In this document: piece by piece, positions 4,375 through 44,764 of the stretch
Layout: every line of letters begins with the position of its first letter
How positions within the stretch are numbered: the stretch's first letter is position 1
Notes under the pieces: model-generated
Seen by the model: the letters and a program-made list of their open reading frames with translations, nothing else
Database searches by the model: none
What the model was told of the DNA's origin: nothing
Program-made: the position numbers and the translations under genes
Origin: Candidatus Woesebacteria bacterium
GTDB lineage: Bacteria > Patescibacteriota > Microgenomatia > UBA8517
Direction: 5' to 3'
Length of the DNA: 64,000 nucleotides
NCBI GenBank assembly: GCA_963716475.1
Contig: OY970314.1
Span: forward strand, 237,226 to 301,225

Positions 4375-4391
4375 ATCGGTTTTCCCCCTTC

Positions 4392-4492
4392 CGGAGGACA
4401 AGTCTAGCTTTGGCACCTTCTGAAGCCTTTACTCCAGAGGTTGTCGGCGGATCTTCAGGCTAGCTCCCTCCCCGCACTCTTGATATATGGAT
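4392..4492 (-). promoter_or_regulatory. SAM-I (S-box) riboswitch in metK leader
   Basis: Leader RNA (reverse complement) reads AUCAAGAGUGCGGGGAGGGAGCUAGCCUGAAGAUCCGCCGACAACC...GGUGCCAAAGCUAGAC, matching the conserved SAM-I core (CAAGAG, GAGGGA, GCCxGAxGA, CCGxCAACC, GGUGCCAA); CCUCC just 5' of the GGGGGA RBS suggests SD sequestration. Confidence 0.7.
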
Positions 4493-5840: not shown

Positions 5841-5882
5841 TTTAGTTTGACAGAAAAGCATTTTGTAGAGTAAACTCGCGCT

Positions 5883-6161
5883 ATGACAAAAGAATATGAG
5901 GTATCCCAATTAAACAGAGATGTTATTGAGGGGAATATTGGTATGGTAATTGAACATTTGGCCGACGCCCGCCTCACGCCGACTGAAATTAAAATATTAT
6001 TGGCGACAGCAATACGTTCCAGAGCCAGAGTTAAGGAGTTGGAAGCAAACGCAATTGATGATTCTTTTGGAGATCTGGAACATTCCGGTGGCAAAAGTTC
6101 GTTTGAGAGAAGACGGGCCGAAAACTTACGGGAACTTGCCGAGCAAGTTGAAAAATTTTAA
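5883..6161 (+). CDS. small hypothetical protein (92 aa)
   Basis: Helical charged sequence; fills the gap between convergent genes; uncertain. Confidence 0.3.
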   Translation: MTKEYEVSQLNRDVIEGNIGMVIEHLADARLTPTEIKILLATAIRSRARVKELEANAIDDSFGDLEHSGGKSSFERRRAENLRELAEQVEKF

Positions 6162-16409: not shown

Positions 16410-16532
16410 TTTAATCTGGACAGATACCCGAGATTATACTATCAGATGTATCAATGTCAAGTTTTGCCTTGTAAAGTATTTACTATAAGGGTTCTGGGAA
16501 ATTTTTATAAATATCCTAAATACTTCAACTAC

Positions 16533-16562
16533 AATATAGGTTGTGTAAAAACTGTTGTCAAT
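16533..16562 (-). promoter_or_regulatory. putative promoter (TTGACA-17-TATATT) upstream of giant adhesin gene
   Basis: Reverse complement reads TTGACAacagtttttacacaaccTATATT; near-identical to the promoter at 24711..24739. Confidence 0.4.
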
Positions 16563-16611
16563 GCATTAAATTACATCAAAAAGCAGGATTTGTTTAAACC
16601 GTTATAATTAG

Positions 16612-17511
16612 GTGCCGACCATGAAAAAATATTTACTGCCTTTTTTAGCCTTGTCCGTTGTGGCGTTAATCGTATTTGTTATTTTCTTTTCGTCCAGGAC
16701 GGGAACCCAACCCTCCTCCGTAAACTCCTCGGTTCCTAAATTTGACCACATTGTAGTGATAGTTATGGAAAACAAGACCGAACAAAATATCATCGGAAAT
16801 AAAGACGCGCCTTACATTAATTCTTTGGCCGGAGCTGGTGCTTTAGCTGCCAACTACTCTGCGGTAGGAAGCCCCAGTTTGCCCAATTATTTGGCTCTTT
16901 TGGGGGGAAGCACTTTTGGAGTTACCAGTGATTGCACAGATTGTTTTCAAAATTCCGCCAATTTGGTAGACCAACTGGAACAAAACCATAGAACTTGGAA
17001 AGCCTATATGGAATCTATGCCATCGCCCTGTTTTCTCGGAGACTCAAATCCATATGCCCAAAAGCATAACCCTTTCATATATTTCGACGATATTAAAAAT
17101 AATAGTGACCGTTGCAATAATATTGTCCCAATGGACGGGCTTACTTCCGACCTGGCCACGACTTCCTTTACCCCGGATTTTATTTGGATTAGCCCGAATC
17201 TGTGTAATGATATGCACGACTGCCCTGTCCCGCAGGGCGATACCTGGCTCTCGCAGCAAATTCCGGGAATATTGGAATCCCCCGCTTTTAAACTTCAGAA
17301 ATCGTTATTGGTCCTGACTTGGGATGAGGGGAATTCCTCGGATAAAAAAGTAGCTACGATTTTGGTTGGCGCAGGCGTTAAAGGGGGGTTTGTCTCAAAC
17401 ACTTCATACACCCATTATTCGCTTTTGAAAACAATTGAAGCATCCTGGAATCTTTTGCCCTTAACAGCCAATGATCAAAAGGCCATCCCCCTGTCCGACT
17501 TTTTCCAATAA
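16612..17511 (+). CDS. phosphoesterase-family protein (acid phosphatase / phospholipase C-like), secreted
   Basis: N-terminal TM/signal; HIVVIVMENKT, SLPNYLALLGG and DMHDCPV motifs typical of the PF04185 phosphoesterase family; likely ATG start at about 16621. Confidence 0.65.
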   Translation: MPTMKKYLLPFLALSVVALIVFVIFFSSRTGTQPSSVNSSVPKFDHIVVIVMENKTEQNIIGNKDAPYINSLAGAGALAANYSAVGSPSLPNYLALLGGSTFGVTSDCTDCFQNSANLVDQLEQNHRTWKAYMESMPSPCFLGDSNPYAQKHNPFIYFDDIKNNSDRCNNIVPMDGLTSDLATTSFTPDFIWISPNLCNDMHDCPVPQGDTWLSQQIPGILESPAFKLQKSLLVLTWDEGNSSDKKVATILVGAGVKGGFVSNTSYTHYSLLKTIEASWNLLPLTANDQKAIPLSDFFQ

Positions 17512-17515
17512 GTTT

Positions 17516-17546
17516 TACCAAAAAAGCGGGGCAGACCCGAAGCTGG
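17516..17546 (+). repeat. intergenic A6-GC(A/G)GGGG motif, copy a
   Basis: taccaaaaaagcggggcagacccgaagctgg; between convergent genes; reverse strand gives a GGG..CCC hairpin + T6. Confidence 0.4.
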
Positions 17547-17562
17547 AGATAGTCATAAGGTT

Positions 17563-17805
17563 TTAGCCCAAATCAATTTCTTTCGAACCGGATCTGAATG
17601 GCTGACCCTCGAGAATGTGTTTTCGATTACTCTCTAAATACATTGCGCTTTTTGTTAGGACAAATTCTATTCTTTCCGAGTAATCTATGAGATCCCTTGG
17701 TAAAACAAATCCCGTGTTTGCCTTCTCGGATAGTTCCCTGACGATAGCGACGGCAACATCAACCCGTTCGGTCTTTTTCCACTTCGAGCTCGGATTTAAA
17801 TTCAT
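17563..17805 (-). CDS. hypothetical small protein (80 aa)
   Basis: ORF only; position is consistent with a terminator-like element just downstream. Confidence 0.25.
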   Translation of the reverse strand: MNLNPSSKWKKTERVDVAVAIVRELSEKANTGFVLPRDLIDYSERIEFVLTKSAMYLESNRKHILEGQPFRSGSKEIDLG

Positions 17806-17832
17806 GCCCGTATTCTACCAAAAGAACGACTA

Positions 17833-18543
17833 ATGTCAAAGCTCCCGCAAATTTTGACTTTGTGCCTATGCGGGTATACACTCTCGGGCAAGATGGGAAA
17901 AGAACAAGCTAGAGAAATCTTTAGGCAACAACTTGCAGCCCTTGGAGGAAACGGGGAAGCCGAGGCTGAAAAGTTAAAAAAGAAGAATGATGAGATTGTG
18001 CGTCTGGCCTCCAAATTCGATAAAGAAACGGAAAAATCTCTAATCGAAGCAGAAGAGCGTTTTTTGAAGGAAACAGAACCGGTCGCCTCAGTAGCAGGTA
18101 TTCTCGAAGAAGCTTGCAAAACTATTGAAAAAAGGGAAAGGAAAGAACCCGGGTCAATAAAACAGAGTAAGATTTTTAGAGTAGATATTCTTGGTGATCA
18201 TGGTACTGACAGTTATCCGGAGTATTACAACCAGGTAGACTTTGTAAAGGCCGTAGAGGATGGAAAATCTATCGATAGTTCAATAAGCGGGGTTATCCTG
18301 GCTTATACAGGAAACACCGAAGCAAGCTCGAACTGTGTACATTTGTGGGTAAAGATGGAAAAAGATGAAAAATCACTCATTTTTCCCAGAATCGCCTGGT
18401 ACATAGGAGAAAAGAACGGCGTGGTCGAAATCGGGAATCTTGATGTAACTCCATTTGCAACTCTGGTAGCAGAAAAGGTAGCCAATAGAGACTTCTATAA
18501 AAAGGTAGAGTACCCCGGTTGGGGTGATTGGAGTTTAAATTAA
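17833..18543 (+). CDS. hypothetical protein
   Basis: 236-aa ORF (probable start MGKEQ at about 17893); charged helical N-terminal region then a globular part; the overlapping antisense ORF 17802..18119 looks spurious. Confidence 0.45.
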   Translation: MSKLPQILTLCLCGYTLSGKMGKEQAREIFRQQLAALGGNGEAEAEKLKKKNDEIVRLASKFDKETEKSLIEAEERFLKETEPVASVAGILEEACKTIEKRERKEPGSIKQSKIFRVDILGDHGTDSYPEYYNQVDFVKAVEDGKSIDSSISGVILAYTGNTEASSNCVHLWVKMEKDEKSLIFPRIAWYIGEKNGVVEIGNLDVTPFATLVAEKVANRDFYKKVEYPGWGDWSLN

Positions 18544-18561
18544 TTCCTCCTTATTTGAACT

Positions 18562-18584
18562 GTAAAAAAGCAGGGTGCTTTCAG
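18562..18584 (+). repeat. intergenic A6-GCAGGG motif, copy b
   Basis: gtaaaaaagcagggtgctttcag; overlaps the stop of the minus-strand acyltransferase gene. Confidence 0.4.
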
Positions 18585-19366
18585 TTTCTATACACACCCC
18601 TCATCTCCGGAGGCAGCATATCTGCAAGCCTTTGCATATGAACATCCGCGAGATACTGAGCCCTTTCTTTTGGATCTTTCGGTAGTGAACTCTTTTCGAG
18701 ATTCATTTCTCCCAAACTTAAGGGTTTTCCTACCTCGATTTTTGGGTGATTGGAAAACTTCCCGTAAACAATTGCTACGGGCAGATAACGCAATTTGTCA
18801 GCCTGGTCATATGCCTCAAGATATCCAATACCCTTTTTTGCAGGCAATAGTGCCCCGTTATCACTTCTGGTTCCTTCCGGAGCGATTCCATAAACCGAAC
18901 CGGGAAGTTTCATTACGTTTTCTGTAATTATTCTTAAGTTGGCACTCATTCGTTGGCTTCTTTTATCACTATATATATTTGCATTTGTACTATCTTTATC
19001 CTCAGGTTGGACAATGGGTAAAATTTGGATACCGAGAGGTTTTAAGGCCCTGAGAAGCATGGCGCTTTTGAAATCACGGGCGGGATCATAATGTTTCATT
19101 GCAGCAGGACCAATAATCCTTTTTGCATTTGTCAGAAAATTAAATACCATAGGAACGGCCAATTCGGCATCCGTCATGGATGTATGGCTTATATAGAAGA
19201 CTACGGAATTTTCTTTAAGAAGTTCATTTGCCGATAGAATGTTTTGCCGGCTTTCTTCGGAAAACTCAAGATTCAAACGGCGCAAAAGCCCTTCCCACAC
19301 TTTCCCCGCCGCAGCACGACGAAATTCCCGAAGGGATCCTCCCAACCCGGCTTCATTTTCCCGCAT
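18581..19366 (-). CDS. lysophospholipid (1-acyl-sn-glycerol-3-phosphate) acyltransferase family
   Basis: HxxxxD box (ISHTSMTD) and APEGTRS box characteristic of PlsC-type acyltransferases. Confidence 0.65.
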   Translation of the reverse strand: MRENEAGLGGSLREFRRAAAGKVWEGLLRRLNLEFSEESRQNILSANELLKENSVVFYISHTSMTDAELAVPMVFNFLTNAKRIIGPAAMKHYDPARDFKSAMLLRALKPLGIQILPIVQPEDKDSTNANIYSDKRSQRMSANLRIITENVMKLPGSVYGIAPEGTRSDNGALLPAKKGIGYLEAYDQADKLRYLPVAIVYGKFSNHPKIEVGKPLSLGEMNLEKSSLPKDPKERAQYLADVHMQRLADMLPPEMRGVYRN

Positions 19367-19393
19367 GAAAGTGATTATAACAAATTCAGTTTG

Positions 19394-19417
19394 CCCAAAA
19401 AAAGAGGGGTGCTTTTC
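19394..19417 (+). repeat. intergenic A7-GAGGGG motif, copy c
   Basis: cccaaaaaaagaggggtgcttttc. Confidence 0.35.
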
Positions 19418-19461
19418 TCCCTGTTTACACTAACCTTTATATTTATTAAACTGACTACCGT

Positions 19462-19974
19462 ATGGCTGATGTGACCAACATAGAAGGAACGGTTGCAAAA
19501 TCAATTGACACGGTTGTTACTAAAGAAGTTCCCCGGGAAAATTTAATGATGCGCTGGGCCGACGGGGGTGATCCGGCCACGTTATATTTATCAAAACGTC
19601 AGGCAGAATACACTCTTGATGCCCGTACGGGAATAAGAAACGCCAAAAACCCGGACGCTCCGGTTACTCCGGAATTCACCGAACCTATGCCGGAAGGATC
19701 AATTATAGACCTCGGAGAAGGCCAAACATTTTTGGTTTCACCCTCATCCAATAGGGCGATACAAAATCAGTTTCCGGAATCCGTTTTTGTAAAAAGAATT
19801 CCTACGGAGGATAAGGTTGACGAAAACGGAAAAAATATTGAGGGGTTTGCCGGTTTAAATCAAAGATTCCAGGCGGAAGGAAAAACATATATGGTCTATT
19901 CAAAAGAAAACGGTAATATTCCCCTTTCCAAAAAAACCGTAAACGATCTTCAGGGAACAAAGTTACAGATATAG
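19462..19974 (+). CDS. hypothetical protein
   Basis: 170-aa ORF; no family recognised. Confidence 0.45.
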   Translation: MADVTNIEGTVAKSIDTVVTKEVPRENLMMRWADGGDPATLYLSKRQAEYTLDARTGIRNAKNPDAPVTPEFTEPMPEGSIIDLGEGQTFLVSPSSNRAIQNQFPESVFVKRIPTEDKVDENGKNIEGFAGLNQRFQAEGKTYMVYSKENGNIPLSKKTVNDLQGTKLQI

Positions 19975-19978
19975 TTTT

Positions 19979-20007
19979 TACCAAAAAAAAGCAGGGGGTG
20001 GCTTCAC
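19979..20007 (+). repeat. intergenic A8-GCAGGGGG motif, copy d
   Basis: taccaaaaaaaagcagggggtggcttcac; followed by TTGACT-17-TAGGAT. Confidence 0.4.
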
Positions 20008-20060
20008 TCTTCAGGAAAGTACTTGACTTAAAAAGTATTCAGACTTAGGATGCAAGCACC

Positions 20061-20462
20061 ATGAATGAAAAAGACGAAGGCGCGCTCAGGAACCGGCTTC
20101 TGACTGAGGAATTTGGAAGAGATAGAGAAGTATTTAACTACGCCTATGATGCACTTCCCCACTTAATGACATATCCGGATTCTCATGCCGATGTGAGGAA
20201 GGTAATTGCTAAGGAATTGGACTATAACAAACTGCCTTTTGACGAAGAAAATGAATTATATAAAGGCATTGCTCTCAAAGATCAGGTCGGTATCGTAAAA
20301 GCCAATCAAGGAAGACGGCCTCTTTGTGAGGCTCTCGATATGCTTCCCTGTAAAAAAGAGGCATGTCCTATTTACATCGCGCCTGGAGCAAAAGATTATG
20401 AGGGTAAGGTTATTACTAAAGTTCCACTTTGCCGTGAGTTTAAAATAGCCTTCAAAAAGTAA
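20061..20462 (+). CDS. hypothetical protein
   Basis: 133-aa ORF preceded by a TTGACT-17-TAGGAT promoter-like sequence. Confidence 0.45.
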   Translation: MNEKDEGALRNRLLTEEFGRDREVFNYAYDALPHLMTYPDSHADVRKVIAKELDYNKLPFDEENELYKGIALKDQVGIVKANQGRRPLCEALDMLPCKKEACPIYIAPGAKDYEGKVITKVPLCREFKIAFKK

Positions 20463-20468
20463 GGAACT

Positions 20469-20494
20469 CCACAAAAAACAGAGGGGTCCTTTAC
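20469..20494 (+). repeat. intergenic A6-CAGAGGGG motif, copy e
   Basis: ccacaaaaaacagaggggtcctttac. Confidence 0.35.
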
Positions 20495-20517
20495 CTCAAT
20501 GATATATAATAAGACTG

Positions 20518-20607
20518 ATGAGCTCTAAATTAATCGGCTTGCTGGCACTGCTTATTTTTGGAGTCGGAATATTTGCTGTTATTTTTTGGTCTATATTAAG
20601 TCATTAA
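20518..20607 (+). CDS. unannotated 29-aa single-TM peptide (MSSKLIGLLALLIFGVGIFAVIFWSILSH)
   Basis: Not in ORF track (under 60 aa); TATATAAT box 8 nt upstream; strongly hydrophobic. Confidence 0.3.
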   Translation: MSSKLIGLLALLIFGVGIFAVIFWSILSH

Positions 20608-20619
20608 AGGGTTGTAATT

Positions 20620-20895
20620 CTAGCAAGGTTTGCCGTCGTTATCTTTAGTTTCCTCGTACCAAACAAACAAATCCGCTGCAGCTTTATCTATTTTTTTAAG
20701 GTTACCTAAAACCACATCTCTGATCTGAAGAGAAGTAACTTTTATAAGAGAGTTGGACTTTATCCATTCCGTAACATATATCGCAACGGTTTGCGCGTGT
20801 ACGCCATCAAGCCCGGCAGCCTCCGCTACCCTGACGATCTTGGTTTCGTCATAAACTTCCAGAGTTCCGTCCCTTTTAACAACATTAACGTTCAT
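20620..20895 (-). CDS. ATP-cone domain protein
   Basis: MNVNVVKRDGTLEVYDETKIVRV... resembles the ATP-cone regulatory domain of NrdR or ribonucleotide reductases. Confidence 0.5.
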   Translation of the reverse strand: MNVNVVKRDGTLEVYDETKIVRVAEAAGLDGVHAQTVAIYVTEWIKSNSLIKVTSLQIRDVVLGNLKKIDKAAADLFVWYEETKDNDGKPC

Positions 20896-20927
20896 CAGTC
20901 TATTTTATCAAAATATTTGAGATTTTT

Positions 20928-20957
20928 TACCACAAAAAAGCAGGGGGTGGTTTCAGG
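20928..20957 (+). repeat. intergenic A6-GCAGGGGG motif, copy f
   Basis: accacaaaaaagcagggggtggtttcagg. Confidence 0.4.
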
Positions 20958-20965
20958 ATCTATAT

Positions 20966-21439
20966 TTACAGCCACGGGAGCTTTACTTTACTGCAGTAGT
21001 TGTCCCAAGCGGTACCAAAAGTTTTTGATAATATTTCTTCTTCTTTGGGTGAATATATTCTGGATCCAATATATAAGACAATACCAATTAGAAGTCCTAA
21101 CCAGGAGTTAAGTAAAAAACCAATTAGCGGCAGCACAAGCAAAGACACACTCGTATATATAGGGTGCTTAACTAAAGAATAAGGGCCGCTTGTTATCAGT
21201 TCTTTTCGAGGCACTTTTATTAAAATTAAGACTACTGACCAAAGCCAAATAATAACTCCGGGAATTAATAAAATAACAGAAGCCGCTTTTAAGGTGAATG
21301 ACGATCCCCCAACATTAAAAAAAGATGGAAATATATTAGTCAGGATCAAACCGATTACCAGAAACGGCAACGTAAAAAGCATTATTTTATCTCCGCTTCC
21401 AATAAGTTCTTTTAATTTCATAATCATATCGTACCACAA
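20966..21439 (-). CDS. isoprenylcysteine carboxyl methyltransferase (ICMT/PEMT) family membrane protein
   Basis: Multi-TM; C-terminal GPYSLVKHPIYTSV...EEEILSKTFGTAWDNY matches the ICMT-family signature. Confidence 0.65.
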   Translation of the reverse strand: MWYDMIMKLKELIGSGDKIMLFTLPFLVIGLILTNIFPSFFNVGGSSFTLKAASVILLIPGVIIWLWSVVLILIKVPRKELITSGPYSLVKHPIYTSVSLLVLPLIGFLLNSWLGLLIGIVLYIGSRIYSPKEEEILSKTFGTAWDNYCSKVKLPWL

Positions 21440-21458
21440 TAAGCAGGGGGGATTTTAC
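21433..21458 (+). repeat. intergenic motif, copy g (A-run interrupted)
   Basis: accacaataagcaggggggattttac. Confidence 0.35.
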
Positions 21459-21480
21459 ACCAATATGTTAAACTGAGAAT

Positions 21481-21849
21481 ATGAAGGTTCGCATGTGGAT
21501 CGTTATCCTATTGGGTCTTGCCGGTGCAGCTTTGGAACTTTTAGCAAAGGGCGCATTTATATCCGACGATTTAAGATCAAATTCCGGTTTATTGGCCGTG
21601 ATTGGTTTAGCTCTTTGTGTATGGTATTTAATCTCATTCCTGATGGGTAAAGTCTCGTTGAATGCCAGAAATATTTCACTTTTACTTCTGGGGTTTTTCC
21701 TAAACGGAGCCGTTTTCTTTCTGATGAAAGATGGATTATTTATATTTATTTTATTCCCATTTATCGTAATCTTTGTTGTGATTTTGAGATTAATTTTTAA
21801 TTTTGCACACTATATCTCCGACCAATTTATCAAATCAAAAAATCGATAA
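21481..21849 (+). CDS. hypothetical integral membrane protein
   Basis: 122 aa with 3-4 predicted TM helices. Confidence 0.45.
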   Translation: MKVRMWIVILLGLAGAALELLAKGAFISDDLRSNSGLLAVIGLALCVWYLISFLMGKVSLNARNISLLLLGFFLNGAVFFLMKDGLFIFILFPFIVIFVVILRLIFNFAHYISDQFIKSKNR

Positions 21850-21862
21850 GATTTATTCTTAT

Positions 21863-21888
21863 ACCACAAAAATGCAGGGGCGATTCAC
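21863..21888 (+). repeat. intergenic motif, copy h
   Basis: accacaaaaatgcaggggcgattcac. Confidence 0.35.
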
Positions 21889-21902
21889 CTATGCGAGCGT
21901 TT

Positions 21903-24695
21903 TTATGGAGTATTCCAGAAAGAAATATTAGCGTAACTTTGGGAGGTCTTGGGCGTAGCGCTACCAACATTTGGTATAGTAAGCGTGTCACCACTATTGT
22001 TGTAAGAATCTAGCGCGCTGATAAATGGTTGTATTCCTAACCCTGACGAATAAGCTGCGTCTGCCTGTGAAATTATAAGTTGAATATTTGACGGACACCC
22101 AAAGGCTGCGCAATTAAGTTTGGCTGCAACGAGCTGTTGAAGCAAAGTCATTCTGGATTGATCTACGGAATTTCTTTTGGCACCGGTGGATGTTTTAGGA
22201 ATGCTAGAATAAAAGGCTCCAAACAGTTGGCTGAGTCCTGCAGATGGTGTGTTGGTGATAGTTCCTTTATGTATATTAGTTGCTGGTGAAAGATTCACAC
22301 CGATATAAAACGGATGCTCATTAAATATGAATGAGGTGAAGCTGGTATGTGTTTGCCAGAAACCGAGAGTTCTTGAGGGACTTAGTTTCTTGTTGGCAAA
22401 GGTACAAGTGATGTTTTTACCTGCGGTCAAATTTATAGTTGCGCTAAGCGTGGAATATGTGGTATTTGCATAAGATAGTGAAGTATCGTTGTCGATACAC
22501 GAGATTCCATTCGGTACCCAGAACACATTTGGCTCTGTTTCACCGATTGTAAAGGATCCCGGGAGCAGTTTATTGAAAACTTTGGTATTTAGGCTGCTGC
22601 CGTCATCGATAAGAGAAAAAGGTCCCAACGCCCCACCGCTAAATGAAAAACTCTCTATATCATTCGGTTGTGCATCTTTGATGATAGTAATGCTTCCGTA
22701 TCTGGTATTTGTAATGGTGCATGATTTTGCGTCTCCGGCGATTAATGTTACTGAACCATCTGATGCGCAATCCCCTGCTATAGTCGGACTGTAATTAGAT
22801 AAAGCCGTATTTGTCCCTGCTACCTCTCCAGCGGCATGCTTACCTGCGGTCACAATTACTGCGCCGGTTGTTCCCCTATCTGATACATCAGTAATTTTTG
22901 TAGAACCGTCTATCTGTAGGTCAAAAAGGCCGCCATCGGTACTCGGAAGTAAAACCTTATTTACTGTTAGTGTGGTTAAACTAAAAGGCTCGCACGCAGA
23001 GTCGCCGGCCGTATAATTGTTATCCCCAACATAGTGAGCGATAAAGGAGAATAAACCGTTTGATAAAGGACCTTCGGAACTGGATATTGCAGTTCCAGGA
23101 TCTTTGTTATCCAAGGGAATACTCCCGGCAGACGAACCTGTTGGGGTACATGCTCCATTAGTAAAGAAGGAAAAGTCAACATTTCCACTGGGCTCAAGCC
23201 CTGTTACTCCAATCCCTGCAACAGTTGCCTTATCGTAAACAGTCGAAGTAGAAGCATCTGTCGTTATGATACTGTTATCAAAATTATGAAGTTCTGTGCT
23301 AATTGTCGGAGTAGCTTGGTTCACTGTCAAATTTTCGCACGAGCTGTCGCCAGATAAATAATTTATGTCACCGTTATAGTGAGCCTTGAATGAATATGAA
23401 CCCGTGGAAAGTGGACCCCTACTGTTTGATGGATGGGCAATCCCGCTAGAAAGAACAACAGTCCCCGCAGAAGTATTTCCGGTTGAACAATCGCCACTTG
23501 TGTAGAAAGTAAAATCAACACTTCCGGTTGGAATTCCAAAAGCCCCGGAAGATGTGGCTTGGTCATGAACTGTGGACCCTAATGCAACAGGACCACTTAC
23601 TATACTTTCATTAGCCAAATGAATTTGTGTAGAAATATCTGGTGTAATTTGGTTTACCGTTAACAATTCACACAAGCTATCAGCGGGATTATTATTATCG
23701 TTACCTTCATAATGAGCGATAAATGAATATGTTCCCGCATTCAGTGGTCCTTCGCTATCGGACGGATGAGCTGTTCCGTCTGACAAAGTTACAATTCCTG
23801 CCGAACTTCCCGCATCTTCTGTACAACTACTATTTGGGTAGAAAGTAAAATCAACATTTCCGGTCGGATTATACCCTCCGGATATTGTGGCGCTGTCGTG
23901 AACGGTGGACCCGGCGTCAACTGATGTAATGGGGTTGTGTTCTGGATCATGAATGGTGGTGGAAAGAGTTGGAGACGCTTTATCGATAGTAACTGCTTCG
24001 TTACTGCAATTATCCGTAACAGGGTTATTGTTTGAATCTCCGTTATATGTTGCAATCCAGTGGTAGGTACCCGCCATTAGCGTGGTGTAGCCAGCTGAAG
24101 TTGAAGAACCATTTATTAGAGGCACCTCCACGTCTGTAAATACCGGCGTGTTTGAACAAGTCGAATCATTTGTATCATAAAGATTGAAAGTTACGGTTCC
24201 CGAAGGATCAGATCCCCCGCTAACAGTGGCGGTATCATAGATTTGTATACCCACCACTCCGCCGGCTGAAGGAGTAGTATAAATAGTCGGACTGGCTTTT
24301 TCAGTACCTGTACAATACAAACTTGCGGATTTTGTTTCGAAATTCGAATCAACTCTGTAGTGTGGCCCCCCTGTCCAGGTTGCTAGATCTAGGGTGTAAC
24401 TTGCAGGACTTGTTGACCCAAAAGGGATAGTTTTAAATATTAGGGGATCTGCCGGTACGAATTGGGTTCCATTTCCACCATGTTTATCGTAGAGAGTCAA
24501 AACAATTCCATCGTCCGGAATGATCCCGGTAAAGGTAACTTGTCCTGTTCCGTTACAATCTGCGCTAATGCCGGTAATTGCAAAAGTTGGCGTTTGTGCA
24601 AATGTTGTACTTTGCCTAAAAATACCTAGACGTGTCGTGACGAATCCCAGGAAGAAGACCAAACAAGCAGTGGCAGTCAATAACTTTTTAAACAT
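21903..24695 (-). CDS. large secreted protein (930 aa) with tandem Ig-like repeats and DUF11/prealbumin-like domain
   Basis: Signal peptide; about four ~110-aa repeats (..STVHDQATSSG..TGSVDFTFY..G.C......AGTV.LS.G.AHPS.S.GPL..G.YSF.AHY.GD.NY...S.CE.LTVNQ); then LTVNKVLLPSTDGGLFDLQIDGSTK...SCTITNTRYGSITIIK; no C-terminal sorting signal. Confidence 0.8.
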   Translation of the reverse strand: MFKKLLTATACLVFFLGFVTTRLGIFRQSTTFAQTPTFAITGISADCNGTGQVTFTGIIPDDGIVLTLYDKHGGNGTQFVPADPLIFKTIPFGSTSPASYTLDLATWTGGPHYRVDSNFETKSASLYCTGTEKASPTIYTTPSAGGVVGIQIYDTATVSGGSDPSGTVTFNLYDTNDSTCSNTPVFTDVEVPLINGSSTSAGYTTLMAGTYHWIATYNGDSNNNPVTDNCSNEAVTIDKASPTLSTTIHDPEHNPITSVDAGSTVHDSATISGGYNPTGNVDFTFYPNSSCTEDAGSSAGIVTLSDGTAHPSDSEGPLNAGTYSFIAHYEGNDNNNPADSLCELLTVNQITPDISTQIHLANESIVSGPVALGSTVHDQATSSGAFGIPTGSVDFTFYTSGDCSTGNTSAGTVVLSSGIAHPSNSRGPLSTGSYSFKAHYNGDINYLSGDSSCENLTVNQATPTISTELHNFDNSIITTDASTSTVYDKATVAGIGVTGLEPSGNVDFSFFTNGACTPTGSSAGSIPLDNKDPGTAISSSEGPLSNGLFSFIAHYVGDNNYTAGDSACEPFSLTTLTVNKVLLPSTDGGLFDLQIDGSTKITDVSDRGTTGAVIVTAGKHAAGEVAGTNTALSNYSPTIAGDCASDGSVTLIAGDAKSCTITNTRYGSITIIKDAQPNDIESFSFSGGALGPFSLIDDGSSLNTKVFNKLLPGSFTIGETEPNVFWVPNGISCIDNDTSLSYANTTYSTLSATINLTAGKNITCTFANKKLSPSRTLGFWQTHTSFTSFIFNEHPFYIGVNLSPATNIHKGTITNTPSAGLSQLFGAFYSSIPKTSTGAKRNSVDQSRMTLLQQLVAAKLNCAAFGCPSNIQLIISQADAAYSSGLGIQPFISALDSYNNSGDTLTIPNVGSATPKTSQSYANISFWNTP

Positions 24696-24710
24696 CCTTT
24701 GCTTAGAACA

Positions 24711-24739
24711 TATATAGGTTGTGTAAGATGTTCTGTCAA
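24711..24739 (-). promoter_or_regulatory. strong sigma70-type promoter (TTGACA-17-TATATA) of the 930-aa protein gene
   Basis: Reverse complement reads TTGACAgaacatcttacacaaccTATATAtgttctaagcaaaggATG; shares the spacer core TTACACAACCTATA with the 16533..16562 promoter. Confidence 0.5.
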
Positions 24740-24808
24740 TATCTCAAAATATATCGTTTTTGTCCTATTACCATTCATGATATATATCCTCTGAGCGTAA
24801 ATTATGAG

Positions 24809-24843
24809 TATCAAAAAAGCAGGTAGTCTTTCGTCTCCCTGCA
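24809..24843 (+). repeat. intergenic motif, copy i (doubles as minus-strand intrinsic-terminator-like hairpin)
   Basis: atcaaaaaagcaggtagtctttcgtctccctgcag: GCAGG..CCTGC stem; reverse strand gives stem + T6 right after the sipW-like stop. Confidence 0.45.
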
Positions 24844-24845
24844 GT

Positions 24846-25901
24846 TTAATTTCCCGGGGTTGTGGTAGGTTCTTGAGGCGGGGTTTCAGTCGGCGTAGGG
24901 CTTGGCGTTGGTGTTGGAGGCACTGTTGGTTCTATGGTTGGTAACACTACTGACTCACCGGCAACCTGTGGTTCTGGAGATTTGCATGGTCCCACATAAT
25001 CTTCTTCGTGTCCTGCTTTTGGAGTTCCGTTTTCGTCAAAATGTCCATTTAATGCTTGGGGTGGAATTTCTAGGGTAATATAATTCGCCGGCTCATCTTT
25101 TCTTCCGGCAACATGGCATATTGTGATTTTTTCTGATGGTGTTGGTTCCCAGTTACCGGCAGTAAACGAATTACCTAAACTTAAATCGTGATCAGTAAAG
25201 TACGATGAAGATACTCCAGCTAAAACAAAAAATATTGCAAATATGGGAATTACCATTGAGACTTTGTTTGTGCCATTATCCTCTTCCGAAACTTTTATTT
25301 TTTTTAATAAAAAACCAATTCGCTTTATTGATTCTTTCTTTAGATATTTTAGCTCTTCATATACAATAATAGTTGCTGGAACGATCACCAGAAGTATAAA
25401 TATTTTTGGATCTTTAGCGGAATTTGCCGCATACCCCAAAAACGGTATACCGATTATTACTTTGCCAACTATCTGACTAGGTTTTATTTGCGCACCATCA
25501 ATAGCGGAATTTGCATCGCCTCTTGTTGTATAACTCCCCATTATCACAGAAACTATTCTGTGAGTTATAAAGGATTCTGAGTCTGCGGAATTTTTAAATG
25601 TAACAACGTCGCCAGTTTTGTAATTTTTAAGAGGTGATGAAAAGACAATAGATCCGGTTTGAATTGTCGGTTGCATGGAACCTGACGTAACAATATAAAC
25701 ACTTGGAATACCGGCAATATTTTTAATATCTAAAGATGAAAGATATAAATGATTTTTTACCAAAAATATCCCGACTAAAGCGCCAGTTTCCAATAAGACC
25801 AGCAACAAAAGAGAGGCCAAAATTATATCGTAGATTTTTTTAGACATTTGCCCAATAGATTGCGCGAATACAACCGCGATAACAATCGTATCCGTGTTCA
25901 C
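24846..25901 (-). CDS. SipW-like type I signal peptidase (S26) with C-terminal TM/Pro-Thr-rich extension
   Basis: SGSMQPTIQTGSIVF (Ser box) and downstream His region; N-terminal TM; extra C-terminal TM segments and PTPTPSPTPTETPPQEPTTTPGN tail; GTG start. Confidence 0.65.
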   Translation of the reverse strand: MNTDTIVIAVVFAQSIGQMSKKIYDIILASLLLLVLLETGALVGIFLVKNHLYLSSLDIKNIAGIPSVYIVTSGSMQPTIQTGSIVFSSPLKNYKTGDVVTFKNSADSESFITHRIVSVIMGSYTTRGDANSAIDGAQIKPSQIVGKVIIGIPFLGYAANSAKDPKIFILLVIVPATIIVYEELKYLKKESIKRIGFLLKKIKVSEEDNGTNKVSMVIPIFAIFFVLAGVSSSYFTDHDLSLGNSFTAGNWEPTPSEKITICHVAGRKDEPANYITLEIPPQALNGHFDENGTPKAGHEEDYVGPCKSPEPQVAGESVVLPTIEPTVPPTPTPSPTPTETPPQEPTTTPGN

Positions 25902-25932
25902 GCAATCTCAGGACAAACAATTCGTATCAACA

Positions 25933-26691
25933 TCAATTCTGATGCCCGATTTGTATGTTCATCCAATCAACGATAGCTGACGGCGCAGCAATCGAAATTT
26001 GCGAATCACCAGTGTCTAAACTTGTTAATGCGTCAGCACTTATCTGTGTCGATTTAACGTTAAACGTTAAATCCAAACTTTTACCCTGTAAGGTATTATC
26101 AGCGTTTGGATCCATTGCTAATTGGATACTTAATCTGTATTTATATCCAGGTTTTAATGCACCTGTAAATACTCCACCGCCTGTTCCCATCATATTGTTT
26201 TCAACAATAGAGTTCCAAGTTGTTAGAGATATTTTTCCTGTTGTATCACTTGCAGCCAATGCAGTGTAATAAGCACCATACGTTCCACTACCAGTCCCAT
26301 CAGTTATAAACGGATCTGTGACTTCCCAAGTAGATGTACCATCTGGTTTGAGAAATTCCATTTGGGCCGTTTTTATATACATGTGGTCAGCCATTACACT
26401 TTCACCAGTCCAGCTAAAATAACCAAACCACCCAAGATTTATTGAACCTTCGTTTGTCATCTGAATAGTGGCAAGAGTGGTAGCATCACCTGGTCTTAGA
26501 TTAGTCGTAGTTCCTAAATCATATGTAAATGTGTTACTGGGTGAATCGGCATTAACGTCCATTGCTAGAGTACCGGAGGTCAAAGTGTTTGCATATGAAA
26601 CATCAGTATCATTAAAAAAAGCCCCTGTGGCCTTGACGGCAACTACAGTAACAAGTGCTATTGTTGCAACACTTATTAATATTTTTTTCAT
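25933..26691 (-). CDS. TasA/camelysin-like secreted protein with SipW-cognate-class signal peptide
   Basis: N-terminus MKKILISVATIALVTVVAVKATGAFFNDTDVSYANTLTSGTL matches the A(Y/F)F(S/N)D...N.(L/F)..G.L signal class; beta-rich body; directly downstream of the SipW-like peptidase. Confidence 0.65.
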   Translation of the reverse strand: MKKILISVATIALVTVVAVKATGAFFNDTDVSYANTLTSGTLAMDVNADSPSNTFTYDLGTTTNLRPGDATTLATIQMTNEGSINLGWFGYFSWTGESVMADHMYIKTAQMEFLKPDGTSTWEVTDPFITDGTGSGTYGAYYTALAASDTTGKISLTTWNSIVENNMMGTGGGVFTGALKPGYKYRLSIQLAMDPNADNTLQGKSLDLTFNVKSTQISADALTSLDTGDSQISIAAPSAIVDWMNIQIGHQN

Positions 26692-26919
26692 AAAATTTTC
26701 ACCCCCTTTCCCGTCCCATACTGCGTGGGGACGACACGCATATCAAAATGAAATTTTTCAAAAATACGAGAAGCTACCAATGTAGTCGTTGACTGAAGAG
26801 CCACGTCGAACTTTGTACTATTCATCGTATCGACGAAACCAAGAACTAACCCGTGAGGCAGTTAGGGGTTAATAATTCGAATATGAGACTTTGTTGTAAA
26901 AAGTCAATATATCAAACAT

Positions 26920-26945
26920 ACACAAAAAGGAGGGGGCGCTTTTAG
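26920..26945 (+). repeat. intergenic motif, copy j
   Basis: acacaaaaaggagggggcgcttttag; overlaps the stop of the second sortase gene. Confidence 0.35.
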
Positions 26946-27544
26946 TAGACTTGGTTTGCAATGACGATGAGGCGGTCGAGGGTGGTGCCCGGGGGGTAAC
27001 AGGTTTGCATAGTAAGAGTGTTTTTATCCGGGTTTCCGGTCAGATATTGACTATCATTTGGGGCTACCACTTTTACCTGATCGACTAAATATTTATATTT
27101 TGTGCCTTGATAGTAAATAAATACTTCATCCCCTTTTGTAAGTTTTCCGAGAAGGTAAAAAACGGCATTATAAGTATTGACGTTATAAAAGGCATCCGTC
27201 GAGTGGGCAAAGATATAAACATTTCCCTTACTTCCCGGCAGTGCAGTCCCTTTTGCCTGGGCTACCCCGCGCTTTAAGGCTTTCAGATATTCGGTTTTAT
27301 TTTGTGAATCGACATTGGCAACGACGGGGGCTACGGCGTCAATTTTGGGGATGATTATGGAAAAATCCGTATTAGGGGGTGTCAGGACTTTTGCAGGAGT
27401 GACTGTTTGTTCATCCGCGATTATGAATTTATTGCCGACAGCTTGGTTATAGTTATATTTGATTTCTTCCTTGGCAACGGGCCAGAAAATTGCAACCAAA
27501 ACGACAAGAGCAACAGCAATTAAAATGGTACCGGCGATCTTCAT
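26942..27544 (-). CDS. sortase-family transpeptidase (second copy)
   Basis: N-terminal TM; NVYIFAHS (His); LTMQTCYPPG (catalytic Cys); TLDRLIV (Arg). Confidence 0.7.
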   Translation of the reverse strand: MKIAGTILIAVALVVLVAIFWPVAKEEIKYNYNQAVGNKFIIADEQTVTPAKVLTPPNTDFSIIIPKIDAVAPVVANVDSQNKTEYLKALKRGVAQAKGTALPGSKGNVYIFAHSTDAFYNVNTYNAVFYLLGKLTKGDEVFIYYQGTKYKYLVDQVKVVAPNDSQYLTGNPDKNTLTMQTCYPPGTTLDRLIVIANQVY

Positions 27545-27593
27545 TAATTGATTATATCAGGCAATCACCTTTTGGGAACGGACGGCCGGTGAA

Positions 27594-28859
27594 TTATATA
27601 GGCTTGAGGGTTTTAAATAACAATTTTTGTATTTTGAAAATAAAAGTCTCAGTCCGGCGTTTTAAAATCACAGTTATGGGGCTTCCGTCCGGCGGATTTG
27701 TTATTCCTGCGGGGTAGTATCCGTCTGCGCTGATATTGGCCTTAACACCGGGTGTATCGTAAGGAAGATAAAATTGTCCGGAGCTTCCGGAAATTACGGT
27801 ATTATCTTGACTGACAATAGTTGCTCCGGAAATCCCCCGGCCTGCCTCGTTAATAAGCACTCCTTTCAAAACACTTGGCGTAAAGAAGTTTTTAAGTACA
27901 GCCGCTCCTTGTCTTCCCGTTCCGTTATCATTCCAAATTTGAGTAGTGCCGCCGAACCCTGTCCAATAATTGATACCGATAAGATTATGGTTATTTGCAA
28001 GTAGGGTTAAGGCGGAATTAATCCAATCCGCCTGTTGGGCTTCCGTTAAATTACCCTGTATTGAAGGAATCGGAACGCCGAATTCTCCTAAAACTACCTT
28101 GCCTCCGGAGGAGGTTGCAATATCCGTAATTCCCTGGTTAAGCTGCCCGGGTGTGGGAACGTAATGGTCAATAACTACTACTCCCCCAAGAGCCTGGGTT
28201 GTGGCCGGGTCCATCACAAGGCGGGCAACATCCGCGTTCATTGGAAAATAATTTGTAGTTACGTTCTTGCCGATCTGAGCCATTGCATCCCTGGAAATCT
28301 GGTACTCGTCTATTAAAAATTGCCTGTGTCCTGCCACATCTCCTGTTTGCCTGGGGTCCCCCGGACCTCCGTTTTCGCATTCAGTGCAGGCCGTAAAAAT
28401 ATCTCCGTCGGCAAATAGATTTCCGTTATCCAGAATAAATTGCTTGAGCATAGTCTCATGCAGGGTCCTTGTTATTGGAGGGTAATTAAACCATCCTTCC
28501 CAGCCTGCGAAGTTGCCCCTGAACCAGACATTGAGGTTATATTTACGGGCCGCGTCCACCCACCTTTTTAAAAACGGAATAAATTCGGAGTCATAAGGAG
28601 TTCCGATTGCAATGTAGTTGGCACCGGTTCCCGCGATGGCTTTGACCTGGGTGTCGATGGTTGCGTCGAAAACAGGGTCTCCCGCGTACTGTCTGGCCAG
28701 GTCGCGGCTAAATTTAACGGTATCAACCGACTGCACCTGCCAAAAATGCGCAGGGTAATCGCCGGGAACCACAGGGTTCTTTTTAAAGACGATAACGGTA
28801 CCAATAATTATTATCAGTACAATACAAATGACGGTTAGTATGATGTTAGTTTTTCGCAT
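27594..28859 (-). CDS. membrane-anchored putative glycoside hydrolase (TIM-barrel, GH5/GH113-like) with C-terminal CarboxypepD_reg-like domain
   Basis: N-terminal TM; candidate acid/base and nucleophile Glu (TECENGG, VVLGEFG); C-terminal beta-sandwich-like region GVLINEAGRGISGATIVSQDNTVISGSSGQFYL. Confidence 0.5.
   Translation of the reverse strand: MRKTNIILTVICIVLIIIIGTVIVFKKNPVVPGDYPAHFWQVQSVDTVKFSRDLARQYAGDPVFDATIDTQVKAIAGTGANYIAIGTPYDSEFIPFLKRWVDAARKYNLNVWFRGNFAGWEGWFNYPPITRTLHETMLKQFILDNGNLFADGDIFTACTECENGGPGDPRQTGDVAGHRQFLIDEYQISRDAMAQIGKNVTTNYFPMNADVARLVMDPATTQALGGVVVIDHYVPTPGQLNQGITDIATSSGGKVVLGEFGVPIPSIQGNLTEAQQADWINSALTLLANNHNLIGINYWTGFGGTTQIWNDNGTGRQGAAVLKNFFTPSVLKGVLINEAGRGISGATIVSQDNTVISGSSGQFYLPYDTPGVKANISADGYYPAGITNPPDGSPITVILKRRTETFIFKIQKLLFKTLKPI

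Positions 28860-42823: not shown

Positions 42824-44764
<1,941 letters not shown>

Follow-up and report, generated by a model that had tools for sequence, protein, structure and literature searches.

A co-oriented intergenic motif at the gene boundaries of a strain-specific island in a Candidatus Woesebacteria chromosome

The stretch of DNA analysed here (64 kb, referred to as the window) belongs to the chromosome of a Candidatus Woesebacteria strain, an uncultured member of the CPR whose genes are leaderless and devoid of Shine-Dalgarno sequences; those around the array described below carry an extended -10 element 6-9 nt before the ATG. The window includes an island of ~10.5 kb (16464-26941) with ~14 genes on both strands, and the entire array of a short intergenic motif lies inside it. 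The boundaries of the island were inferred by comparison with a relative, L049. The island is inserted between the stop codon of a sortase gene (26942-27544, minus strand) and the promoter of a SpaA-type pilin gene (11739-16409, minus strand), and the homologues of these two genes in L049 are 57 nt apart (TAA-AACTTGACA...TATAAT). The array is absent from the relatives L049, L052-L056 and L057, and the locus, flanked by the H+-pyrophosphatase and gyrA genes, is a variable hotspot whose content differs among relatives. These comparisons show that the array sits in a strain-specific island. The units of the island consist of unrelated, non-paralogous genes, the ICMT gene bearing a horizontal-transfer signature, and the neighbouring inserted block (about 27.6-40.3 kb) contains zero copies of the motif.

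The motif is ~30 bases long, occurs once in almost every gene gap and keeps its direction constant across the island. Read on the minus strand, which is the direction of almost all genes surrounding it, it is composed of TGAAA, a C-rich tract, TGC, T5-8 and then G(T)GGTA, often followed by an A-run; the C-rich tract and the uninterrupted T5-8 are the sole nearly invariant part in 16 aligned copies. The original prediction had listed ten copies (a to j), all on the plus strand, and had read them on the minus strand as a C-rich tract followed by a T-run, and both points were confirmed, the copies by their exact spans. The motif behind its printed consensus is real, but it is looser than the prediction implied. 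The 19-mer ACCACAAAAAAGCAGGGGG was found at 3 sites only when allowing up to 3 mismatches (0.03 expected), and the core AAAAGCAGGGG gave 9 matches with at most one mismatch (1.8 expected). In leave-one-out profile HMMs, in which the held-out copy was scored against both strands of the window, every held-out copy was the top non-training position. Six copies (b, c, d, f, h, and j) were robust (E<0.05), and a, e, g, and i were weak (6.9-8.8 bits, with 7.0 for a, 7.1 for g and 6.9 for i; background maximum 5.8-6.7 bits). Furthermore, we have found an eleventh co-oriented, degenerate copy (k, CATCAAAAAGCAGGATTTGTTTAAAC) in the next gene gap leftward. The motif thus occupies 11 of the 13 intergenic regions in 16410-26941 and none of the 20 intergenic regions of at least 25 nt in the rest of the window (Fisher p=4e-7), its orientation is uniform in 11/11 copies (p=0.001), and the remaining 54 kb of the window hold no copies. 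These tests of occupancy and orientation bear out the proposal of a dense, oriented element confined to gene boundaries rather than chance. Exact-pattern scans of 185,579 species genomes, JGI metagenomes, and IMG/VR revealed no multi-copy cluster of the motif.

The copies are described here from left to right with their minus-strand sequences. Copy k (16574-16599, GTTTAAACAAATCCTGCTTTTTGATG), absent from the earlier list, occupies a divergent gap and precedes the second pilin-gene promoter (TTGACA) by 20 nt; it forms one subtype with copy i, and similar promoters follow both (repeat D8). Copy a (17516-17543, GCTTCGGGTCTGCCCCGCTTTTTTGGTA) lies in a convergent gap, 4 nt past the stop of a plus-strand gene (16612-17511) and 19 nt past that of a minus-strand gene (17563-17805), and contains a small 4-bp hairpin. 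The stop codon of an acyltransferase gene (18581-19366, minus strand) is overlapped by copy b (18562-18584, CTGAAAGCACCCTGCTTTTTTAC; hairpin of -10.8 kcal/mol, z -1.6), which is also 18 nt past the stop of a plus-strand gene (17833-18543), and in the divergent gap beyond, 17 nt separate the T-run of copy c (19394-19418, AGAAAAGCACCCCTCTTTTTTTGGG) from the extended -10 element (TGTTATAAT) of this leaderless acyltransferase gene downstream. Copy d (19979-20006, TGAAGCCACCCCCTGCTTTTTTTTGGTA), 4 nt past the stop of the plus-strand gene 19462-19974, is flanked by two plus-strand genes, and copy e (20469-20494, GTAAAGGACCCCTCTGTTTTTTGTGG) is located 6 nt past the stop of another one (20061-20462), with a 29-aa plus-strand ORF (20518-20607) between it and the 3' end of the ATP-cone gene (20620-20895, minus strand). 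Copy f (20928-20955, TGAAACCACCCCCTGCTTTTTTGTGGTA) follows the ICMT stop codon by 12 nt, lies at about -34 to -60 relative to the leaderless ATP-cone gene, and shares 94% identity over 32 nt with copy d (repeat D12). In the case of copy g (21433-21459, TGTAAAATCCCCCCTGCTTATTGTGGT), in a divergent gap, the copy's own GTGGTACGAT is the extended -10 element of the leaderless ICMT gene (ATG at 21421). Copy h (21863-21887, TGAATCGCCCCTGCATTTTTGTGGT; hairpin z -1.6) lies in a convergent gap, 11 nt past the stop of the plus-strand gene 21481-21849 and ~15 nt past that of the gene for a 930-aa surface protein, whose promoter is ~75 nt downstream of copy i (24809-24833, CGAAAGACTACCTGCTTTTTTGATA; hairpin GCAGGGAGAC-GAAA-GACTACCTGC), itself 3' of a SipW-like gene (24846-25901, minus strand). 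Finally, copy j (26920-26945, CTAAAAGCGCCCCCTCCTTTTTGTGT), which has no hairpin, marks the right edge of the island, overlapping the sortase stop codon 17 nt upstream of the promoter of a camelysin/TasA-like gene. As originally proposed, six copies (a, b, f, h, i, and j) are at the 3' end of minus-strand genes, 0-17 nt past the stop; two of them, b and j, and not three as claimed, cover stop codons, and copy g extends over a gene start or promoter. It had been missed that all five plus-strand genes have a copy 4-18 nt past their stop codon. Altogether, 7 of the 11 copies are downstream of a minus-strand gene and 6 just upstream of a minus-strand promoter, copy d alone being neither.

Canonical intrinsic terminators, one of the readings offered before, were not supported as stated: a consensus terminator scan made zero predictions at the motif, hairpin energies in the 40 nt before the T-run were not better than those of shuffles (Stouffer z -0.35, with b, h, and i alone being marginal), and no consensus structure was found across the 16 aligned copies. 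The hairpins described in copies a and i are present, as are small ones in b and h. REP-like repeats found no support either, as the 81-nt single strands around the copies folded no better than shuffles (z -1.8 to +1.2) and the copies are local instead of dispersed. The absence of a conserved fold, together with the absence of hairpin enrichment before the T-tract, argues against the motif being a canonical hairpin terminator, a REP element, or the attC site of an integron. Strong canonical hairpin terminators do exist elsewhere in the window (42446, minus strand; 45543, plus strand), and a family-like copy in L057 (5531-5572) is a true terminator with a 13-bp stem (AGGGGTATTTCTT-GAAA-AAGAGGTACCCCT) followed by G and T7.

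In the related strains L058 and L059 the ATP-cone gene has the motif on both sides, and the neighbour upstream of this unit varies, being a co-directional gene, a divergent gene or, in the window, the ICMT gene. The orthologous copy f was found in both strains; its core is identical to that of L059 at 24 of 25 positions, compared with 67% at synonymous third positions (p about 6e-4 in a post hoc test). In addition, the homology between L058 and L059 ends exactly at the C-run, synteny breaking at the motif. All these data show that the motif is co-inherited with the ATP-cone unit in related strains and that the core of copy f is under selective constraint, which was demonstrated for this copy only, one that overlaps a promoter-upstream region. 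Neither the strain-specific island nor a motif travelling with a gene unit could have been revealed by the original prediction, which had been made from the sequence alone.

The explanation that we tentatively prefer, while holding it to be possible rather than probable, is that the motif is a polar, T-tract-based stop or insulator that was carried by each gene unit and multiplied during the assembly of the island. As the boundary module of these small units, it would halt leftward RNA polymerase at the long T-tract, and because the hairpin is weak, variable, or absent, the halt would probably be assisted by a factor such as NusA, NusG, or Rho. The module lies either immediately ahead of the following unit's leaderless promoter or right behind a leftward gene. 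It would be inherited together with its gene unit and would have multiplied while units were being added and rearranged through recombination at the junctions, which could explain the presence of one co-oriented copy in nearly every gap of the island. Since the genes are leaderless and lack Shine-Dalgarno sequences, each unit needs its own 5'-terminal start and read-through would be useless to it. Here we infer the stop function, any dependence on factors, and the mode of recombination. In favour of this stop we counted the true terminator of L057 and the modest hairpins of b, h, and i, the T-tract architecture, position, and leaderless context, the flanks of the ATP-cone unit, the conservation of copy f, the homology break at the C-run, and the lack of the array in three related genomes at the hotspot. 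Against it we counted the lack of group hairpin enrichment, of terminator-scan matches and of a consensus structure, the canonical hairpin terminators that the organism has elsewhere, the copies c, g, and k, which lack a co-directional upstream gene, and copy d, which has a minus-strand gene on neither side. A terminator can do without conserved primary sequence (CCCCTGC, GTGGTA), and termination by bacterial RNA polymerase at a T-tract alone is not known, both of which also count against a stop. Moreover, convergent genes elsewhere in the window are 1-14 nt apart, or overlap, without a terminator, so that a stop at every junction is not a general need.

Alternatively, the motif could be a recombination site at which a site-specific recombinase inserts or excises units of one or two genes plus the motif, much as happens in integron arrays and Xer-dependent dif modules, and co-oriented sites would then be left at each junction. 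This would agree with the single site per junction in the same orientation irrespective of gene strand, with the unrelated genes in the units, with two-gene units that are sensible as such (like the SipW-like and TasA/camelysin-like pair), and with the lack of the entire array in relatives. The motif-flanked ATP-cone unit with its synteny break, the 94% identity of d and f despite unrelated flanks, the conservation of primary sequence rather than structure, and the transfer signature of the ICMT gene also fit. However, we consider it unlikely, given that no recombinase is found inside or adjoining the island and that the only tyrosine recombinase (1326-2279) is Xer-like, keeps its place in all relatives and, with 124.8 bits, falls short of the integron-integrase cut-off of 265 bits. 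The site has neither inverted arms nor an attC-type fold, the empty junctions of L049 and L052 lack the motif, the left end of the island is not terminated by it, four copies are very degenerate, and the exact-pattern database scans gave no multi-copy cluster. Even more doubtful is that the copies are relics, non-functional or only locally functional, of a single junction segment (such as the one at the ATP-cone gene, with half a terminator and a promoter-upstream region) which segmental duplication or gene conversion spread to adjacent gaps during island growth, most of these copies now decaying. The graded conservation, from the d-f pair down to the barely detectable a, e, g, i, and k, would be expected then, as would the likewise duplicated promoter segments beside i and k (D8) and a constraint shown for copy f alone. 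The motif resembles the 3' half of an ordinary bidirectional terminator, the full form of which was seen in a chance match in Thermolongibacillus (L002). But neutral decay fails to explain the occupancy of nearly every gap, the uniform orientation, and the zero copies inside genes, the duplicated unit is merely ~30 nt without flanking homology, and the two copies around the ATP-cone gene have been retained in relatives.

Two regulatory readings seem improbable to us. An operator array, bound by a sequence-specific protein at a site made of A-run, GCAGGGG and T-run with a weak AAAAGC...GCTTTT inverted repeat around the G-rich core, would co-regulate or roadblock transcription across the island. 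The conservation of sequence without structure, the weak A-run/T-run symmetry in b, c, d, i, and j, the local clustering expected of a local regulon and the constraint on the copy f core are in its favour. The site array of the original prediction is nevertheless unsupported, because the distance from the T-run to the -10 element downstream of it is inconstant (4, 17, 26, 40, 43 or about 98 nt) and five copies abut the 3' ends of plus-strand genes; besides, the spacer between the half-sites can be anything between 3 and 9 nt long. The island proteins yielded no DNA-binding domain: the 170-aa protein gave a faint MazE/AbrB-like match and no structural match, and has homologous segments in giant proteins (3/15 homologue clusters, 1,653-5,191 aa), and the 80-aa protein is just a plain helical hairpin. 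The least probable of all is a leftward promoter-upstream module, a UP-like T-tract/A-tract element with TGGTA as extended -10 or -35, from which the minus-strand genes would be transcribed, along with antisense RNAs arising at the 3' ends of the five plus-strand genes. It can point to the GTGGTACGAT of copy g, to the T-run and A-run of copy f, which occupy about -28 to -44 in the ATP-cone promoter and are conserved in relatives, and to the TGGTA(A/T)AA of a, d, f, and h, but the distance to the -10 element spans 4 to about 98 nt and the TGGTAnnn hexamers of these four copies have no conserved final T. Furthermore, sigma-70 promoters contain nothing equivalent to the C-run and TGC, the best conserved part of the motif, and the spacing is also unsuited to ECF-type (13-18 nt) and sigma-54 promoters.

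Among known systems, weak-hairpin intrinsic terminators stimulated by NusA/NusG have been described in B. subtilis. The motif shares with Rho-independent terminators a G+C-rich segment before a run of 5-8 T, a position 0-37 nt past stop codons, the full 13-bp hairpin of its L057 counterpart and, with bidirectional ones, the A-run on its other side. In contrast to them, most copies have no hairpin at the T-run and no enrichment over shuffles, unrelated loci share a conserved 3'-arm sequence, a co-directional upstream gene is missing for four copies, and the motif travels with the downstream gene instead of the upstream one. REP/BIME, BOX, RUP, and Correia repeats are likewise extragenic, repeated, and at gene ends, but the motif is neither palindromic nor dispersed, is strictly uniform in orientation, and has no associated transposase. 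Xer-dependent dif modules (pdif) and dif-integrating elements resemble the array in their small gene modules, sites of ~28-30 bp and an Xer-family recombinase gene within the window; unlike pdif sites, which alternate in orientation, the copies do not, and they lack the 11-6-11 layout, inverted arms and AT-rich centre, the xer gene being 14 kb off and conserved in array-less relatives. As for integrons, the array has no integron integrase, its genes are near-equally split between strands, each with its own promoter, and the ~30-nt motif shows no R''/L''-L'/R' inverted structure or single-strand fold of attC. Nevertheless, like integron cassette arrays (including CALIN), it is strain-specific and is formed by short units, mostly of one unrelated gene, with co-oriented sites between them, and contains horizontally acquired genes and genes of unknown function. 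Finally, the location of the array in the H+-pyrophosphatase/gyrA hotspot, with content differing among relatives, recalls the neisserial 'minimal mobile elements', a term used in two reports (PMC3787668, PMC2911385). In these elements, variable genes lie between conserved flanking genes.

The ten motif sites between positions 17516 and 26945 are all on the plus strand, and a check against the sequence confirmed the coordinates of the original prediction. The copies are far more degenerate than the consensus printed for them: only 3 sites match its 19-mer within three mismatches, where 0.03 are expected. With one mismatch allowed, the 11-mer core AAAAGCAGGGG gave 9 matches in the window, where 1.8 were expected. 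When the ten copies were used to make a profile HMM, they scored 9.7–20.7 bits with it, against 5.9 bits for the best other position of the window. In a leave-one-out analysis, each held-out copy outscored all other non-training positions on both strands of the window, with E<0.05 for copies b, c, d, f, h, and j and weak scores for copies a, e, g, and i. We have also found an eleventh, degenerate copy (copy k, 16574–16599), which is co-oriented with the other ten and occupies the next gap to the left of copy a, at 942 bp from it; the ten original copies are spaced 430–2946 bp apart. Copies are present in 11 of the 13 intergenic regions in 16410–26941 and in 0 of 20 elsewhere in the window, counting there only regions of at least 25 nt (Fisher p=4e-7), and all 11 have the same orientation (p=0.001). 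The motif array is therefore real and not a product of chance, as had been claimed.

The array lies in a piece of bacterial chromosome that carries gyrA, gyrB, an H+-pyrophosphatase gene, type IV pilus genes, two sortase/pilin loci, a Xer-type recombinase gene, and metK behind a SAM riboswitch. This riboswitch (RF00162, 45.6 bits, 4370–4489, minus strand) is upstream of metK and overlaps the GTG at 4416 listed as its start, so that the true start is probably further downstream. Shine-Dalgarno sequences are nearly absent across the genes of the window (for example at the starts 17805, 19366, 20895, 4547, 9880, 27544, and 42426), and many genes have a TATAAT-like or extended −10 element (TGnTAnnnT) ending 6–9 nt before the start codon, which together point to leaderless transcripts; judging from these signals, leaderless mRNAs seem to be the rule in the host organism. 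The GyrA of the window belongs to a 90%-identity cluster labelled Candidatus Woesebacteria / Microgenomates, which makes the host a CPR bacterium. Gene calls on an identical Logan contig independently confirmed the small genes of the region on both strands. Canonical hairpin terminators are used elsewhere in the window, for example at 42446 (minus strand) and 45543 (plus strand), and the convergent gene pairs outside the island that holds the array are separated by 1–14 nt or overlap (2279/2282, 5059/5061, 55740/55755, and 58516/58519), with no terminator and no space for any.

Within the island, where the array units hold one or two genes each, all five plus-strand genes have a motif copy 4–18 nt past their stop codon, and six of the eight minus-strand genes have one 0–17 nt past theirs. 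A minus-strand gene precedes 7 of the 11 copies, the exceptions being c, d, g, and k. Copies d and f are the best conserved (94% over 32 nt), and copy d is flanked by no minus-strand gene. An unannotated ORF for a hydrophobic peptide of 29 aa, MSSKLIGLLALLIFGVGIFAVIFWSILSH (20518–20607, plus strand), separates copy e from the 3′ end of the ATP-cone gene and is preceded, at a distance of 7 nt, by a TATAAT element of its own. As a separate observation, a 44-nt segment is 75% identical between the promoter regions 16534–16577 and 24712–24755, each just downstream of a copy of the same subtype (k and i, respectively); the two minus-strand promoters concerned (TTGACA-17-TATATT) are the second one of the 1556-aa pilin gene and that of the 930-aa Ig-like protein gene.

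When 16 copies were aligned (11 of the window and five of relatives), the minus-strand consensus was AAA-n-C-n-CCCC-TGC-TTTTTT-GTG-n-AAAAAA, in which the end of the C-run and the T-run are nearly invariant. The run of five to eight T is present in 10 of the 11 window copies (copy g has TTATT), which satisfies the U-tract of at least 5 expected of an intrinsic terminator. Regarding structure, RNAalifold predicted 0 pairs on this alignment and thus no conserved secondary structure, the folding of 81-nt DNA single strands around 10 copies showed no excess stability (z −1.8 to +1.2 against shuffles), and no match to a consensus terminator was found at any motif copy. Hairpins were not enriched in the 40 nt before the T-run (minimum free energy, 500 shuffles per copy, Stouffer z −0.35), with marginal ones only at copies b, h, and i (z −1.1 to −1.6), and the covariance models of Rfam 15 gave no relevant match at E<=1 in 16000–28000. 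The coding of a short peptide was discarded: the shared reading 'KPPPAF(L/F)W' simply results from translating the motif, is preceded by stop codons, and lacks a start codon.

Three short contigs (L058–L060) carry a homologue of the ATP-cone gene with 80% identity, and the nucleotide homology to the window (20639–20946) extends from the coding sequence over the promoter and includes the core of copy f. The orthologue of this copy in L059 is GTGAAAACCCCTGCTTTTTTGTGTAAAAAAT (18 bits), and a second co-oriented copy, CCGCCCCTGCTTTCTTCAGCAAAAAAA, is found 2 nt after the ATP-cone stop codon in the relative. The 25-nt core of copy f is identical to that of L059 at 24 of 25 positions, against 67% at synonymous third positions (binomial p ~6e-4, for a segment picked post hoc, after the data had been seen), indicating that the motif is under constraint, at least at copy f. 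Starting at the ATG, L058 and L059 show 100% identity; from the motif to the ATG they have diverged by ~10%, and upstream of the C-run they are unrelated. Furthermore, each of the three genomes has another gene upstream of the ATP-cone gene (a co-directional gene of 200 aa, a divergent gene, or ICMT). The motif therefore belongs to the downstream unit, and synteny breaks at the motif. Two family-like copies are present in another relative, L057; one of them makes up the 3′ arm and the T7 of a hairpin terminator with a perfect 13-bp stem, and the other has no hairpin. No other junction repeat was found in the hotspot of L057, and the motif was absent near acyltransferase homologues (60–67% amino acid identity) in other, more distant CPR genomes. 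A genome- or lineage-wide motif was rejected, as scans with the exact pattern returned single, unclustered matches at chance level: 18 in the GTDB genomes (185,579 species; ~17 expected by our own estimate), 7 in IMG/VR, and 9 in JGI metagenomes. In a more distant CPR relative (L020), the neighbouring gaps 4813–4960 and 5714–5954, upstream of NUDIX and MazG genes, both contain GACCAAGTACACTCTTCAATATAAC, a separate local intergenic repeat whose sequence is unlike the island motif.

Relatives that share the flanks of the region fall into three groups, with gyrA at 82–84% nucleotide identity. The interval between the H+-pyrophosphatase gene and gyrA measures 31.5 kb in the window (8808–40320), 2 kb with two sortases in L052–L056, 8 kb with a sortase and a 2160-aa pilin in L049–L051, and 7 kb with small genes in L057. 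The interval is a hypervariable hotspot in this Woesebacteria clade, in which sortase and surface-protein genes are always present. In L049, the homologue of the sortase gene 26942–27544 (minus strand) is followed after 57 nt by the homologue of the pilin gene 11739–16409 (minus strand). In the window, ~10.5 kb (~16464–26941) separate the sortase stop codon from the pilin promoter, and this span is exactly that of the motif array. The empty junctions of L049 and L052 have no motif, and none was found by the HMM scan in a second inserted block (~27.6–40.3 kb), a glycosyltransferase/deacetylase cluster. As an aside, the gyrB of L052–L056 (2261–5491) encodes 1076 aa with an intein (PF14890), whereas that of the window (42824–44752) encodes 642 aa and has no intein.

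The island proteins are mutually unrelated, and the cargo includes a phosphoesterase, an acyltransferase, the ATP-cone protein, the ICMT methyltransferase, the 930-aa Ig-like surface protein, a SipW-like and camelysin/TasA-like pair, and several proteins with no assigned function. The ICMT/Ste14-like methyltransferase (151 aa, 20966–21421, minus strand) has more than 1200 homologues at 70–78% amino acid identity, partly on non-CPR contigs (WOR-3; contigs with IS1 elements and PadR/MacB genes). The nucleotide identity (74–77%) is limited to the coding sequence, which, together with the non-CPR homologues, is the pattern of a gene that the CPR genome acquired by horizontal transfer; the motif was absent beside the homologues on non-CPR contigs. 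At 24846–26691 (minus strand), a signal-peptidase-like protein (351 aa, weak S26 match) adjoins a camelysin/TasA-like protein (Peptidase_M73), a pair that recalls the sipW-tasA fibre module of B. subtilis and is here in a CPR island, beside a sortase. The gene of the 930-aa surface protein contains three to four tandem repeats of ~336–345 nt (22976–23912, minus strand; Big_3_5 domains) with 65–82% nucleotide identity. The family of a 170-aa protein (19462–19974, plus strand) is small, comprising 15 clusters at 50% identity, and homologous segments are repeated as many as 10 times within giant proteins of 1,653–5,191 aa. An AbrB/MazE-like regulator of the island was discarded, given a faint NCBIfam match only (E 0.026) and no PDB fold match for the model of the 170-aa protein (pLDDT 83). 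The 80-aa island protein is a two-helix hairpin.

The motif is thus a short, unstructured, and oriented sequence that sits at the borders between the gene units of a strain-specific island and is passed on together with a unit. Its most economical function would be that of a polar stop or insulator for leftward transcription, a reading that we favour tentatively and at somewhat less than an even chance. In its favour are the C-rich tract with a long T-run, the position (behind most leftward genes and ahead of leftward leaderless promoters), and the kinship with one true terminator; with the hairpin missing, the stop could only be weak or assisted by a factor. The intrinsic terminators of the original prediction are borne out only partly: the T-run is there, the hairpin is not, and the position after a minus-strand gene is mixed (7 copies of 11). 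Copies c, f, g, i, j, and k lie upstream of minus-strand promoters at variable distances, and in copy g the GTGGTACGAT part doubles as the extended −10 of the leaderless ICMT gene. At six promoters, the T-run precedes the −10 element by 4, 17, 26, 40, 43, or ~98 nt, a fixed distance being expected of a transcription factor operator, and five copies are located at gene 3′ ends. The binding-site array proposed initially likewise finds only partial support; an operator array appears improbable to us, and a leftward promoter module, for which the same variable distances rule out a fixed promoter element, is the least probable of the readings considered. A sigma-54 or ECF promoter was rejected, because the invariant GG is missing and the TGAAA-GTGG spacing varies from 13 to 18 nt.

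The motif could also be the recombination junction of a cassette-like system, with one site per junction, an orientation that is uniform whatever the gene strand, a conserved primary sequence, a break of synteny at the site, and unrelated cargo; the lack of a recombinase, of an inverted-arm architecture, and of the motif at the empty site stands against it, and we regard it as unlikely. The sole tyrosine recombinase of the window (1326–2279; 124.8 bits against TIGR02249, cut-off 265) resembles XerC/D/XerA and is syntenic in relatives without the array. Slightly more doubtful is the specific form in which a non-integron, hairpin-less CPR gene-cassette system would use unstructured ~30 bp sites of the form TGAAA–C-rich tract–TGC–T-run–GTGGTA to delimit mobile single-gene units, each with its own leaderless promoter, and insertion, excision, and exchange would take place at these sites in the H+-pyrophosphatase–gyrA hotspot. 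A decaying duplicated junction seems rather unlikely. A repeat derived from paralogous gene duplication was discarded, the island proteins being unrelated to one another. The same applies to a phage or plasmid origin (no nucleotide match in phage or plasmid collections and no meaningful PHROG signal in the island proteins), to a tRNA-fragment att site (no tRNA or tmRNA genes in the window, and a motif that cannot be parsed as T-arm plus acceptor stem), and to an oriC/DnaA-box cluster (TTATCCACA with <=1 mismatch gave 15 unclustered matches against 17 expected).

To our knowledge, CPR bacteria are uncultured organisms with ~1-Mb genomes, and very little has been learned about their transcription signals and the ways in which they gain genes. 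A hairpin-poor stop driven by a T-tract, if that is what the motif is, would represent an unusual termination mode for a bacterial polymerase and would show by what means transcription units are insulated in a genome with leaderless genes and no Shine-Dalgarno sequences. A recombination junction would instead reveal a new route of cassette assembly outside integrons, in a lineage with strain-variable surface and envelope genes. Either way, the 30-nt probe and the hotspot could be used to follow strain-level gene flux in Woesebacteria metagenomes; a decaying duplicated junction would be a local curiosity.

Several known systems share features with the motif. Intrinsic terminators require a stable G+C-rich hairpin 0–3 nt before the U-tract, which the motif does not have. 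Integron attC sites consist of an imperfect inverted repeat (R″-L″...L′-R′) that folds as single-stranded DNA, a fold that is missing here, and no integron integrase (IntI) adjoins the array. REP/BIME elements are imperfect palindromes of 20–40 nt, and the REP-like nature suggested for the motif finds only partial support, with no palindrome or fold and no copies in the remaining 54 kb of the window (window-only scan). Xer/dif sites have two ~11-bp inverted arms around an AT-rich centre of 6–8 bp, whereas the alignment of the motif, read as a dif-like site, shows a G-rich centre and arms that agree only in A/T runs. As these defining features are lacking, the motif falls outside the four families and is best filed as a new form of short intergenic junction repeats. 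By analogy, it would work most like a terminator or insulator, and its arrangement is most like that of an integron cassette array, with which it shares the layout of co-oriented sites between short, mostly single-gene units.
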